From a virus: a stretch of DNA of 64,000 bases. Position 1 is the stretch's first letter; each line of letters starts with the position of its first letter. The DNA lies in the IMG/VR virus record IMGVR_UViG_3300032241_002679, positions 77,844 to 141,843 of that record. The stretch is one strand, 5' to 3'. Shown one piece after another: positions 35,821 to 39,633 of this stretch. Under the pieces are notes generated by a model that saw only the letters and a program-made list of their open reading frames with translations, made no database searches and was not told where the DNA came from. The translations under genes were made by a program, and so were the position numbers.

Positions 35821-36111
35821 CTAATTGGTCACATAATATAAATCCCATTTTTTTGAAAAATTTATAAATGTCTGGGCAACAAATTCATTTATAGAGTCCC
35901 AGTCCCCGAACATTTCCTCTTTCTCCCACCACCAACCTCTAATCTCAGCCAGTTCATTAATGTCATTAACAAACTCTAATTGTTTTTCATTCGGTAATGA
36001 TAACAATAATTCTGAATATTCAAGAATTGATACCACAGAACTTAAATCATGAGTATAGACCTCACATTCAATAATTGTATTATTTTTTTTGTTTCTTAAA
36101 AAATGTACCAT
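35821..36111 (-). CDS. Hypothetical protein
   Basis: 96-aa ORF. Confidence 0.55.
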   Translation of the reverse strand: MVHFLRNKKNNTIIECEVYTHDLSSVVSILEYSELLLSLPNEKQLEFVNDINELAEIRGWWWEKEEMFGDWDSINEFVAQTFINFSKKWDLYYVTN

Positions 36112-36122
36112 ATATAGTCAAT

Positions 36123-36554
36123 TTATTTCTTTCCAAAAACTACAATCATACTATCATGCATTCCAGCCTTATTCTCGACATATTCACCCTTCGTGTTCAT
36201 ACCTAAAAATTTTACTCTACCCCTAAGAAATCTAATTTCTTCAGCGTTTGGTTTAATGTAATCATGAAATAATTTGGTAGATGTACTTACTGGTAAAAGC
36301 ATGACGCATAATTTACCCCTCTTACTCATTTCAATATCCCTCTTTACAAAAGCTTCCTTCAATTGTCTTGAATACGGTGGATTAATATAATTTCTTTCGC
36401 CCCACTCTATTAATAACCCATCATTCTCTTCAGTTATTTCACCTAGGTTTAATGGACATGGATCGAAGTCAAAATTGAATTCTTTATTTAGCTCGTCATA
36501 TAAATAAGGTGGAGTTGCCCAATTATCACTATGCTTTAAATTTCTATTTTTCAA
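36123..36554 (-). CDS. Phage DNA N6-adenine methyltransferase (Dam-like)
   Basis: DNWATP..FDFDPC..YINPPYS..IRFLRGRVKF. Confidence 0.85.
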   Translation of the reverse strand: MKNRNLKHSDNWATPPYLYDELNKEFNFDFDPCPLNLGEITEENDGLLIEWGERNYINPPYSRQLKEAFVKRDIEMSKRGKLCVMLLPVSTSTKLFHDYIKPNAEEIRFLRGRVKFLGMNTKGEYVENKAGMHDSMIVVFGKK

Positions 36555-36608
36555 GTTTTTATTGTATTTTAATTAAGATATTGAATATTTATTAATAAAA
36601 TAATTTTA

Positions 36609-36729
36609 ATGGCAACAACAGCAAATTCACCCTATAAAGTCTCCTTTGGTAGAAGAAAAGGCGGCAAGGCTAAAAAATCATATAATAAACACGAATCTAA
36701 AAAAACAATATAGAGGCCAAGGTCGCTAA
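36609..36729 (+). CDS. Small basic late protein of YRGQGR type, frameshifted in an A7 run
   Basis: ATATTTAT at 36585; MATTANSPYKVSFGRRKGGKAKKSYNKHESKK; 0-frame TAG at 36711; the +1 frame gives QYRGQGR-stop. Confidence 0.55.
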
Positions 36730-37499
36730 TTACTTAATGGTGCTTTAATTGCTGGATGAGATTTATAATTATCTAATTTGAAATCATCTGGGTTTAAATG
36801 GTTATATAGTGATTGATCCCCTGATAATGATTTATAAAAAACATCTGTCTTACAATGTACTAATTTTGGTAATTCAAATGGCATCCTATTAGAATAGGGG
36901 ATATTATTACAATTCATCCACCAATTAATTATTCCTTCAGTAAATGGACTTAAATTTCCAAACTCATCTCTTTGTTTTTCCGTTAAAAACTCTCTACGTT
37001 CTTCCCAAGATAATTTACCAATTTGCTCCTTAGCTTGTTCAATATGATTTAGGTATAAATGAGTGTCACCTAAATTACCAATCAATTCATCAGGCACCAT
37101 ATTCACAATTTTTGCAATAATCTCTAACAGTAAACCATAAGATGCTATGTTAAACGGCAAACCGAGAAAAGTATCGATGCTTCTCATATTGAATATCAAA
37201 GAGATTGCTCTGTATTTTCCAGGATTAACTATTTTTTCATCCCTTGTGGTTGGTCTGGTATAAACTTGAAATCCGTAATGACAAGGCGGTAAAGTCATTT
37301 CTGTTAGGTCATTGACTGCCCACGCATTAACAATTAACCTACGAGAATCTGGATTTTCTTTTAATTGTTTAATCAAATCAGATATTTGGTCTATACCTTT
37401 GTTTCCAAATTCTTTATTGAACTCAGCATCGGTTTCTAACTTTTTTAAGAACTCTTCCTTCGTAAAAGGTGTCCCATCTTCGTGTGTGTATTTATTCAT
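36726..37499 (-). CDS. thyA: Thymidylate synthase, C-terminal fragment
   Basis: IDQI..PDSRRLIVNAW..LPPCH..RSID.FLGLPFNIASY..GDTHLY.NH..HPAIKAPLS. Confidence 0.92.
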   Translation of the reverse strand: MNKYTHEDGTPFTKEEFLKKLETDAEFNKEFGNKGIDQISDLIKQLKENPDSRRLIVNAWAVNDLTEMTLPPCHYGFQVYTRPTTRDEKIVNPGKYRAISLIFNMRSIDTFLGLPFNIASYGLLLEIIAKIVNMVPDELIGNLGDTHLYLNHIEQAKEQIGKLSWEERREFLTEKQRDEFGNLSPFTEGIINWWMNCNNIPYSNRMPFELPKLVHCKTDVFYKSLSGDQSLYNHLNPDDFKLDNYKSHPAIKAPLSN

Positions 37500-37503
37500 A
37501 ACT

Positions 37504-38196
37504 TTAATTTATATAATACCAATTTTTATACCTCTCTTTGAATTTTTCTGAACGAAATCTATTTAATAATCTATCTCGCATAGTACATTCATTTATATTG
37601 AAAAAATCCGCAGCTTCCTTTGCCGATTCAAATTCAACACCATCTATTGAACATCTTTTGTTTGACGTGGACGGTAATTTCTTTCCTTCATATTTTTTTT
37701 GTTTATCATTATTGGCCTTGGTTGATATATGATATCCATTAAACCGACCAGGTAACCAACCTTCTAATTTAATTCTTTCATCATTTGGGAAAGTTCTTAA
37801 ATTAGTCCCATTTAATTTATGATACCATTTGGTTCCAGTTAATCTTTCTTTAATTGAACTTATTTGGGTTTCAGATGGTTTAAATTTTTGCCAAACTTCT
37901 AACATTTGATGTTTAGCATATTCATATATTCGAGATGAAGGTCTATACCTTTTCTGATTGTCAGAAGAACGACACATTGACCAAAAAGAATATCGTAAAT
38001 CTGTATTATTGGGATACATTTCGTGTAATAACCAATGACATAGAAAATGCTCTCTTGCTGTTAGTTTTACTATGTTATCTGAATTATTAGTTCCATTCAT
38101 ACATTTTGGGATTATGTGATGTTTTTCTGAATATCCACCCAAATTTCTACTTTTTGCTCTTTCAATTATTTGATTGTAAATTTTTCTGTAGTTCAT
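37504..38196 (-). CDS. Free-standing HNH homing endonuclease (MobE-like)
   Basis: EKHHIIPKCMNG.N..DNIVKLTAREHFLCHWLL; C-terminal HTH (FESAKEAADFF). Confidence 0.88.
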   Translation of the reverse strand: MNYRKIYNQIIERAKSRNLGGYSEKHHIIPKCMNGTNNSDNIVKLTAREHFLCHWLLHEMYPNNTDLRYSFWSMCRSSDNQKRYRPSSRIYEYAKHQMLEVWQKFKPSETQISSIKERLTGTKWYHKLNGTNLRTFPNDERIKLEGWLPGRFNGYHISTKANNDKQKKYEGKKLPSTSNKRCSIDGVEFESAKEAADFFNINECTMRDRLLNRFRSEKFKERYKNWYYIN

Positions 38197-38247
38197 ATAT
38201 TCTCCATTGATTACCGTATATAAATATGGTAAAAAATAGAAAACATA

Positions 38248-38805
38248 CTATTTCGTTTGAACTTTTTTCAAATAATCTTCGTATAGTTCGTCTTTTGTTT
38301 TTCCACTCCAATTACGCCACTGGAATCCGTATATTTTTCCGAGATCACCCCACTTCTCGGCAAATACGTTATCAGTTTTGATTTTCTCGATGAATTCTTC
38401 TTTACTAAAAAACCCATCTATTTTAAAATCCCCCCATCCTTCAATTTTAGTCCCACTAACTTCCAATGGTTCACTACTTTTGATTTTAAAATCATATGGA
38501 TTAGAAGAAAACATTGCACTATCCAAATATTTCTTATAAGCATCACCATCCCAAATGTGACAATCGTTATCAACCAGATATTTTATGTTGGTATCGCCTC
38601 TCAAAAACCATAGTAATTCAGTAACGATTCCCTTAAAATGCATTTTCTTTGTAGTTAATAATGGAAATTTACCATCTTTAAATTTGTATCTAATAGACCT
38701 ACCAAAGACACTTAAAACTTTACCGTTTCGGGTGTTTTTCTCAACCCCATTTTCTAATATATCCTCTAAAAGGTCTATATATTGTTTGTCTAATCCATTT
38801 TTCAT
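38248..38805 (-). CDS. thyA: Thymidylate synthase, N-terminal fragment
   Basis: [38 protein letters not shown]. Confidence 0.92.
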
Positions 38806-39005
38806 AGTATAATAAATTTAAAATTAATGTTTTTATTTAAAACGGATTCTCTTTTTAAAAGGTTTTTTTCTTTTTCTTTATTAAACGTGTAGGTTGATTT
38901 TACCTCAATAACTTTATTTTCCGATTTAATATAAATGTCTGGATAATATCTGTGAGTTTTGTTTTCGTAAACATAATGAAACCCTCCAATCTCGTCAATT
39001 ATTAT
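38802..39005 (-). pseudogene. 5'-truncated PD-(D/E)XK homing-endonuclease remnant
   Basis: Start-less 67-codon frame ...KTHRYYPDIYIKSENKVIEVKSTYT...FKFIIL; its TGA overlaps the thyA ATG. Confidence 0.75.
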
Positions 39006-39015
39006 TTATTTTAGA

Positions 39016-39633
39016 TTATTTATCAACTACTTGATACATAAGCTTATTATCCTTTATTATTTCAATATAATAAACATTTCCAAAAGTCTTATAATATTTA
39101 ATTCCATCAATTATAACAATTTTAGCATCTTCTGGTAAATAAGATACTATTGCACCTACTGGAGGTTTAACTACTTCATAATTTCCATCACTTGTTTGGT
39201 CATAATAAATCCCAGAATAGTAATAATAAGGATAGCCGTTATAGAAAAATGCCCAATAACCATATGGTAAACCACCAACCAAAAATCCAAATGGTGGATA
39301 TATTAAACTATAATATGAATTATAATACAATCCATGGTAAAAAAAACAATTGGCGTTTGCAATACGAACACTTACGCCACGATGTGATATTACTCTCATC
39401 ATATGCCTGTTTACTACAACATCCCTGTTACCATAGTTGTGTTGTCCATTGTTATAAGTATGCTGACCATTATATCCGTTATTATAGGTACGTTGTGTAT
39501 TATTATAATGCGATGCTTCATAATGAGGCGCATTATAGTGTGGTGCACTATAATGCGATCCATTATTATTTCTCTGTGCATTTAAAGAACTAATTATTAA
39601 TAGAGCTAAAAATAAATTTACAATCTTTTTCAT
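39016..39633 (-). CDS. Secreted Tyr/His-rich protein (DUF6515-like, Bacteroidota type)
   Basis: Signal peptide MKKIVNLFLALLIISSLNAQ; YYYYSGIYY..YEVVKPPVGAIV..LP. Confidence 0.65.
   Translation of the reverse strand: MKKIVNLFLALLIISSLNAQRNNNGSHYSAPHYNAPHYEASHYNNTQRTYNNGYNGQHTYNNGQHNYGNRDVVVNRHMMRVISHRGVSVRIANANCFFYHGLYYNSYYSLIYPPFGFLVGGLPYGYWAFFYNGYPYYYYSGIYYDQTSDGNYEVVKPPVGAIVSYLPEDAKIVIIDGIKYYKTFGNVYYIEIIKDNKLMYQVVDK

Follow-up and report, generated by a model that had tools for sequence, protein, structure and literature searches.

A phage thymidylate synthase gene divided by a free-standing HNH endonuclease gene, with conserved ends that may clasp the two halves together

Introduction

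Free-standing homing endonucleases were for a long time regarded as restricted to intergenic DNA, except where an intron or an intein shelters them; NrdA of phage Aeh1 is one departure from this rule. Here, we describe a viral thymidylate synthase gene (thyA) that is divided by a free-standing HNH endonuclease gene. It lies in a stretch of 64,000 nucleotides (hereafter, the window), which covers positions 77,844 to 141,843 of the IMG/VR record IMGVR_UViG_3300032241_002679; the whole record has 141.8 kb, a G+C content of about 29% and an estimated completeness of about 40%. The N-terminal half of the divided gene ends with a short additional tail, the C-terminal half starts with a short additional head, and both are common to hundreds of phage thyA genes. 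We consider it probable that the tail and the head clasp two polypeptide chains into one enzyme. The locus bears on the questions of how the halves of split enzymes locate one another and what the origin of assembly tails is.

In phage Aeh1, the nrdA gene is split by mobE in the order nrdA-a, mobE, nrdA-b (Friedrich et al. 2007; PMC3045599), and the tails derived from the insertion are essential for the activity of the enzyme (Crona et al. 2011, PMC3045599). The authors proposed that the mechanism may be general, and expected the tails to vary between cases and to be difficult to detect by sequence similarity (PMC3045599). The initial annotation of the window had likewise named Aeh1 nrdA as a gene split by mobE whose product assembles from two polypeptides. 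How such split enzymes assemble was described as an open structural question in a 2010 review of the mobile elements of T4-like phages (PMC2988022). Both in Aeh1 and in the window, a Mob-type HNH gene splits an essential gene of nucleotide metabolism with neither an intron nor an intein, and the new tails are absent from unsplit homologues. The halves are separately translated in Aeh1 and separately startable in the window. Moreover, in both cases one tail is basic and the other acidic, and the RNA hairpin that limits the endonuclease in Aeh1 has a counterpart in the window with a presumably similar role. By analogy, the window locus appears to be the same kind of thing as Aeh1 nrdA, in another enzyme. 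It differs from Aeh1 in that this enzyme is ThyA, that the role of the ends as a clasp is a proposed one, that one tail pair is conserved over hundreds of lineages and re-used at two or three break sites with three endonuclease families, that the head is homologous to part of the small domain of the same enzyme, and that a putative fused revertant exists. Judging by the sequences, what is new is this single conserved tail pair, found over hundreds of lineages, at several sites and with several endonuclease families, and traceable to the enzyme's own small domain.

The T4 td gene, with its group I intron and I-TevI, and the introns in thyA genes of Bacillus phages are known examples of a homing endonuclease gene interrupting a phage thymidylate synthase gene. 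In td, a hairpin delays the translation of the endonuclease, and the window also has a hairpin at the start of its HNH gene. The window locus differs from td in its insertion site, in that no ribozyme core was detected at positions 36000-39500, in flanks that are translated and under selection as peptides, and in an enzyme that would consist of two chains. In the fractured genes with split inteins, an endonuclease gene is likewise located between gene halves, which are joined with the help of short appended sequences (Dassa et al. 2009, PMC2677866); here, by contrast, intein nucleophiles and domains of the size of HINT (the Hedgehog/intein fold) are absent, and the association would be non-covalent. 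A full-text literature search for split, fragmented or two-subunit thymidylate synthases yielded no papers.

Results and Discussion

The thyA gene of the window is divided into two intact halves

The calling of open reading frames (ORFs) revealed three intact minus-strand ORFs arranged head to tail in the order thyA-N, HNH, thyA-C (Table 1). The thyA-N product matches positions 1-108 of the Pfam thymidylate synthase profile PF00303 with 127 bits, and the thyA-C product matches positions 105-224 with 159.9 bits (cut-off 24.3). As the two matches meet near positions 105-108 of the profile, the break is located between the QWRNW motif and IDQI. Both the ORFs and the Pfam matches agree with the initial annotation, which had described a thyA split at this point by a free-standing HNH gene. 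The last 40 positions of the profile remained unaligned in thyA-C, and the C-terminal ThyA motif is nevertheless present; the match stops at position 224 because of an insertion of about 45 amino acids before the C-terminal strand (residues ~163-205, window 36870-37015), which is common to locus L174 and Flavobacterium phage immuto.

Table 1. Features of the split thyA locus. Positions are those of the window.
Feature	Position	Strand	Description
thyA-N	38248-38805	-	185 amino acids; residues 1-166 thymidylate synthase including the complete first small domain, then the 19-residue tail and a stop codon
Native small-domain helices B and C	38338-38409	-	thyA-N residues 133-156; segment copied in the head
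C-terminal tail of thyA-N	38251-38307	-	residues 167-185, core LYEDYLKK
Spacer thyA-N/HNH	38197-38247	-	51 nt
Conserved RNA hairpin (predicted)	38195-38248	-	covers the HNH start region, in the 51-nt spacer
HNH homing endonuclease	37504-38196	-	Mob-type, free-standing; 230 amino acids
Spacer HNH/thyA-C	37500-37503	-	4 nt between the HNH stop and the thyA-C start
thyA-C	36726-37499	-	257 amino acids; head, then IDQI to the C-terminus
N-terminal head of thyA-C	37395-37499	-	residues 1-35: HEDGTPF, then a diverged copy of small-domain helices B and C

The thyA-C half contains DSRR, the catalytic PPCH, RSxD, PFNIASY and GDTHLY, while the tyrosine of YGxQWR is in thyA-N. In a comparison with the contigs of four DNA runs, the probable source run matches positions 37063-38900 without differences. 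No contig of these runs bridges an endonuclease-free or fused form of the window phage; the other pieces are short matches to thyA genes of other organisms, with a likeness of 85%. The 141.8-kb record, estimated to be about 40% complete, contains no second thyA and no thyX, and no terminator-like site was found within the split-gene region. Translational bypass was rejected as an explanation, as the 748-nt gap holds a complete ORF. The possibility that the enzyme is a dCMP-specific hydroxymethylase was rejected as well, as the asparagine of PFNIASY is retained.

Related genes do decay: a stump of a split copy (L146), remnants with a broken HNH gene (L190) and halves with altered catalytic motifs (L188, L219) were found, as if insertion could inactivate thyA and leave its fragments as pseudogenes. 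However, both window ORFs are intact with every catalytic motif in place, the catalytic and substrate-binding residues of ThyA are invariant or nearly so in the 15 split loci that we compared, the gene bodies of these loci are under purifying selection, and the record, as far as it is complete, holds no other thyA and no thyX. The window genes are thus very unlikely to be decaying pseudogenes.

The tail and head are shared by many split genes and are under purifying selection

The nearest cultured relative of the split enzyme is the contiguous 423-amino acid ThyA of Flavobacterium phage immuto. For comparison, we collected about 70 distinct contiguous thyA relatives from IMG/VR. They have a single copy of the small-domain helix pair, the YGxQWRxW motif, a hypervariable loop of 7 to about 110 amino acids, and then IDQI. 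As this loop is hypervariable, the break in the window sits where nearly any sequence is tolerated. The 19-amino acid tail and the 35-amino acid head of the window occur in none of these unsplit relatives; the sole exception elsewhere is a fused form described below.

In contrast, tblastn and pattern scans located this tail, with its LYEDYLKK core, in 16 IMG/VR contigs and this head, in which TKEEFL... comes after HEDGTPF, in 18. The module made of both is also present in 68 metagenome contigs and in 554 protein clusters of a 5.8-billion-protein collection, and the best 120 of the 554 all contain PF00303. The hosts of the split module are aquatic phages. The initial annotation had described the ends as resembling a duplicated small domain; they did not originate by duplication within the window phage, but belong to an imported and highly conserved two-part module common to hundreds of phage thyA genes. 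This module also explains hundreds of thymidylate synthases that are called as "short" in metagenomes.

Across the 15 split loci, the gene bodies are 50-70% identical, and the ends are nearly invariant, with the tail residues L174, Y175, D177, Y178, L179, K180 and K181 being the same in all. The nonsynonymous (pN) and synonymous (pS) divergence was 0.095 and 0.46 in the tail, and 0.098 and 0.64 in the head. The resulting pN/pS ratios of 0.15-0.20 compare with 0.16 in the catalytic core, so that purifying selection on the tail and head is as strong as on the catalytic core. Such low ratios at a large synonymous divergence indicate that the tail and head are translated and kept by purifying selection, and not merely transferred recently.

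These results also bear on the question of whether a group I intron or a degenerate split intein accounts for the interruption, with a single-chain mature enzyme. T4 td and other phage thyA genes carry group I introns with an endonuclease, and inteins occur in the thyA family, as illustrated by an intein-like insert at the catalytic cysteine in L261. According to the initial annotation, flanks of 51 and 4 nt are too short for an intron core; these lengths are correct, but the argument was incomplete, as the codons of the tail and head could belong to an intron, and with them about 217 nt lie outside the HNH ORF. However, an Rfam search of positions 36000-39500 with E up to 10 found neither a group I intron nor another RNA family, apart from two chance snoRNA matches with E >3. 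The tail and head evolve as a constrained protein, the intervening DNA is wholly different between loci, and the fused form retains both peptides in frame. The purifying selection on the peptides, the loci without an endonuclease and the in-frame fused form together exclude an intron. With respect to an intein, the first residue of the tail is S, N or G, and Ile comes directly after the head; there is no conserved nucleophile at the start of the tail, and no Cys, Ser or Thr nucleophile after the head. The combined 54 amino acids are also far below the size of a HINT fold (about 130 amino acids). Splicing of either kind can be regarded as very improbable.

The head resembles helices B and C of the native small domain

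In thymidylate synthases of the Lactobacillus casei type, a small domain composed of helix A, a loop and helices B and C is inserted between the IWD and DLG..YG motifs. A BLASTP comparison of the window ORFs aligned head residues 12-35 with residues 133-156 of thyA-N (11/24 identical, 20/24 positive, E 2e-4). In an hhalign comparison based on the sequences of the 15 split loci, the head matched the small-domain profiles over 26 columns with a probability of 93.5% and an E-value of 2.3e-7. Both comparisons bear out the initial annotation, which had noted that the start of the C-terminal fragment resembles a segment of the N-terminal one, and they identify the head as a true, diverged copy of the helix pair B-C.

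We also modeled a fused relative (P0006), in which the tail is joined to the head, with AlphaFold 2 (AF2). The model had a predicted local distance difference test (pLDDT) value of 88.9. Its native small domain is formed by helices 84-94, 107-116 and 118-124, and its tail and head form helices 143-156, 167-176 and 178-184, in the same pattern of A, loop and B-C. The model lends soft support to the view that the tail and head make up a second small-domain-like unit. Compared with the L. casei-type domain, this second copy would be located in another loop and divided over two polypeptides.

The module has moved between thyA genes and is re-used at other break sites

The split genes do not group together. 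Mapping the split state on a tree of the C-half bodies required 10 changes, of which well-supported branches forced at least 6; on a tree of the N-half bodies, 9 changes were required, and at least 5 were forced. Constraining the split genes to a single clade cost 123 log-likelihood units (p 0.033 in the approximately unbiased (AU) test). The N-terminal body of the window gene is closest to that of the unsplit gene L087, and its C-terminal body is closest to those of other unsplit genes, L045 and L054. Additionally, the DNA between the halves varies from locus to locus: it contains the window-type HNH gene, a second HNH type (36% identity) accompanied by a 55-amino acid ORF, a GIY-YIG/NUMOD3 gene, or extra small ORFs. 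In L094 and L095, the split and the module are kept, and no endonuclease is present.

The module is not confined to the loop before IDQI. A second break site lies just before the catalytic PPCH. There, the same tail and head flank a GIY-YIG cassette in an E. coli-type thyA lacking the small domain (L166/L208) as well as in a thyA of the phage type (L203). The gene in L196 is interrupted at both sites and consists of three pieces, the middle one of which carries the head and the tail at its opposite ends. In a third class, the break is inside the native small domain, so that native helix A ends one chain and native helices B-C begin the next. This class is represented by L179 and by 78 clusters of "piece 2" proteins of 58-77 amino acids; L179 was the only such case among the collected loci, and it was the protein search that showed such breaks to be common. 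Several "piece 2" proteins begin with an H-x-x-G-x-P lead-in, as in the head, and in some, the sequence of helix C lies between its native form and that of the head. These sequences suggest that a break in the native small domain gave rise to the module, which later moved with the endonuclease to other loops; support for this direction is partial.

The fused form corresponds to one cluster (380 amino acids, P0006), found on four contigs, L226 and L230 among them. In it, the tail is joined in frame to the methionine of the head. In the split loci, the 6-nt word AAAGTT directly before the ATG of the head repeats a word at the end of the conserved part of the tail, and the fused gene is an exact join at this word. 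The start methionine of the head is kept at the join, and the gene carries a G in place of the Q in the YGxQWR motif. This variant occurs in 13 of 17 split genes and in 1 of 73 unsplit ones; the window gene has Q. Among unsplit homologues, whose carrying the duplicated segment would have spoken against the initial annotation, this one rare form does carry it, and the roughly 70 unsplit relatives do not. Whatever its origin, the fused form shows that a folded enzyme can accommodate the tail and head next to each other.

The fused form could also be read differently, with the segment as an old in-frame second small domain whose internal loop was later invaded by endonucleases. The in-frame join of tail and head would fit this, as would the presence of the same 6-nt word on both sides of the intervening DNA, with the fused form as its exact join, and the fact that the native small domain is often broken at the homologous loop. 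However, a single fused cluster stands against 554 split ones, and the retained start methionine together with the G variant fits re-fusion by deletion. Moreover, the presence of the module at a different site in a thyA that lacks any small domain (L166) requires transfer. An ancient second domain thus seems a poor prospect, and the fused form itself is, from its sequence, rather a product of re-fusion by deletion than the ancestral state, though the latter retains some weight.

Predicted assembly of the two chains

To account for these features, we propose that one transcript gives rise to two thymidylate synthase polypeptides with neither RNA nor protein splicing. The Mob-type HNH cassette would occupy the hypervariable surface loop between QWRNW and IDQI, and would encode the basic tail of the N-terminal half, a single amphipathic helix with the core LYEDYLKK, as well as the acidic head of the C-terminal half, HEDGTPF followed by two helices copied from small-domain helices B and C. 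Across the break, the tail and head would together form a second unit of three helices that resembles the small domain, and this unit would hold or position the halves and thereby make the insertion cheap for the host. The element spreading among phage thyA genes by homing and recombination would run from the tail through the stop codon, the hairpin, the endonuclease or other ORFs and the start codon to the head, with the conserved exon codons on its flanks acting as homology arms.

A complex of the thyA-N and thyA-C products, predicted with alignments of split relatives, reached an interface score (ipSAE) of 0.85 in three runs, compared with 0.09 for the best control. Among solved complexes, 58 of 80 attained this mark, as did 2 of 110 mismatched pairs. 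At least 97% of the contacts were common to the runs, and the pLDDT of the partners was at least 87. The score may largely reflect the memory of solved ThyA folds, and it shows likeness rather than binding. Of the tail, residues 171, 174-175, 177-179 and 181-183 fall within the confidently predicted interface, and of the head, residues 4-5, 11-12, 14, 17-18 and 21. The tail is mildly basic (isoelectric point 8.0-9.2) and the head is acidic (5.2-6.0). Modeling of both fragments as a complex had been suggested by the initial annotation, and its outcome is in line with the two-chain enzyme proposed there. As to the ends being a docking module, their status as a selected functional module within the predicted interface holds up, and docking itself stays a plausible interpretation.

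The tail and head could also be passive baggage, co-converted with the endonuclease and tolerated in a surface loop, with the halves assembling by the ordinary ThyA core interface. The pS values near the junction (0.46-0.64) are somewhat lower than those in the gene bodies (0.71-0.78), as would be the case for co-converted flanks, and the interface between the halves is very large even apart from the ends. In Aeh1 NrdA, the tails are not needed for heterodimer formation (PMC3045599). On the other hand, pN/pS ratios of 0.15-0.20 at a pS of about 0.5-0.6 are a sign of long-term purifying selection of catalytic-core strength, and the module is retained without an endonuclease in L094 and L095. 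It also recurs at a second site in another thyA subfamily, and the adjacent loop sequence is hypervariable in unsplit genes. Passive baggage is therefore unlikely, though it deserves consideration.

Several observations weigh against the tail and head acting as a clasp. With about 270 predicted contacts, the interface between the halves is so large that they might assemble without a clasp. In Aeh1 NrdA, too, heterodimers form without the tails, and the contact list for the window proteins does not specify tail residues touching head residues. In a BLOSUM scan, the best ungapped match of the tail fell on the first small-domain helix (A) in 8 of 17 split loci, but the shuffle p-values ranged from 0.002 to 0.2 per locus, with 0.087 and a best match elsewhere for the window, so that this likeness alone is not significant; the resemblance of the end of the N-terminal fragment to the DAYKKYLDS segment, which the initial annotation had called loose, is real as a weak likeness only. 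In the model of P0006, the tail and head module has a pLDDT of just 62-85, a confidence that may be understated or biased, as the alignment used probably placed some heads on the first helix copy. The rejection of a single origin of the split state by the AU test is marginal, and recombination of gene bodies could mimic the mobility of the cassette. As the fused form exists, the segment may have pre-existed as an in-frame insertion.

Taking all this together, we favor a two-chain enzyme, formed with neither RNA nor protein splicing and clasped by a portable tail and head brought by the endonuclease cassette, as the probable state of the window locus; within this proposal, tail-head binding, any need for it and the activity of the enzyme are presumed. 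That the tail and head are more generally a natural portable split-domain clasp, by which several endonuclease families colonize loops of an essential enzyme without an intron or an intein, has in our estimation an even chance of being correct. If the clasp is real, thymidylate synthases of two, three or more pieces would be possible, and selfish insertions would have a third, protein-level route to neutralize their own damage. The pair may then provide a compact natural split-protein tag, ready-made for complementation.

The HNH endonuclease and the spacer hairpin

The middle ORF was assigned to the homing endonuclease family phrog_655 of PHROGs (E 1.6e-44). Among cultured phages, the T-even phages have the nearest relatives, namely free-standing HNH genes (32.6% identity), of which one carries the annotation mobB. 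The endonuclease in the corresponding position of other split loci shows 73-75% identity to the window protein. The Pfam HNH model gave no reported match with the protein, PF20987, a C-terminal I-TevI-like DNA-binding module, scored 22.5 bits, below the cut-off of 27, and a PDB sequence search with E up to 1 yielded no match. The polyphyly of the split state lends indirect support to a possible site-specific cleavage of endonuclease-free thyA alleles, and to homing, by the window HNH protein.

The 51-nt spacer between thyA-N and the HNH gene is near-invariant DNA in 12 loci, and is better conserved at the DNA level than the coding sequence. It is predicted to fold into a hairpin of -19 kcal/mol (z -4.81), and none of 200 shuffled sequences was equally stable. 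In the cases of mobE and I-TevI, a hairpin limits the translation of the endonuclease (PMC2988022, PMC3045599). By analogy, the spacer hairpin is probably a translational brake on the endonuclease.

Additional observations on the locus and its relatives

Directly downstream of thyA-C, positions 36123-36554 (minus strand) of the window encode a phage-type Dam-like DNA N6-adenine methyltransferase (PF05869, 75 bits).

The loop between QWRxW and IDQI holds other sequences in some relatives. A domain of about 110 amino acids with the motif VKWSDLHSF is present there in frame in some unsplit thyA genes; it was noted in L090:3998-5449, L099 and L166:1048-1788. In L179 (minus strand), a related sequence occurs as separate small ORFs in the intervening DNA, between the HNH gene and piece 3. 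In the unsplit genes L060 and L075, the loop after QWRxW holds a copy of the TRDEKIV.PG.Y segment, which follows the catalytic cysteine in the C-terminal half of the window gene (37215-37260) and in L031 and L240; the copy appears to be an intragenic transfer of a segment within thyA.

Some relatives seem to preserve traces of the split state. A 44-amino acid stump (L146:2617-2748), consisting of the end of an N-terminal half with its tail, is located 1.2 kb upstream of an intact unsplit thyA and looks like the leftover of an earlier split copy. In L188:3328-4137 and L219, the catalytic motifs of the split C-terminal halves are changed (DSRR to DDRG, LPPCH to LRPCH), which suggests either decay or a shift in function. 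In L261 (from 2869 onward), a headed thyA-C of 555 amino acids leaves the ThyA sequence after the catalytic PPC, as if it had an intein at the catalytic cysteine. Free-standing proteins of about 100 amino acids (P0181, P0184, P0190, L041:292-663) combine a small-domain-like part, composed of helix A, a loop and helices B-C, with a piece resembling the second variable insert of phage ThyA. They are without the catalytic core and may be remnants or accessory proteins.

WHO-like endonuclease cassettes reportedly bring along a substitute for the end of their target gene, which thereby remains functional. In those cassettes, the endonuclease travels with a piece of the target gene. Among the relatives of the window gene, endonuclease genes or small ORFs directly behind thyA-C, namely L042:4777-5454, L173:9403-10266 and L030:1034-1405, end in a second copy of the last approximately 12 residues of ThyA (..YQSHP.IKAPLSN), in what appears to be the same layout. 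The window locus differs from such cassettes in that they replace the end of a gene that encodes one chain, whereas here two small-domain halves are placed on two chains.

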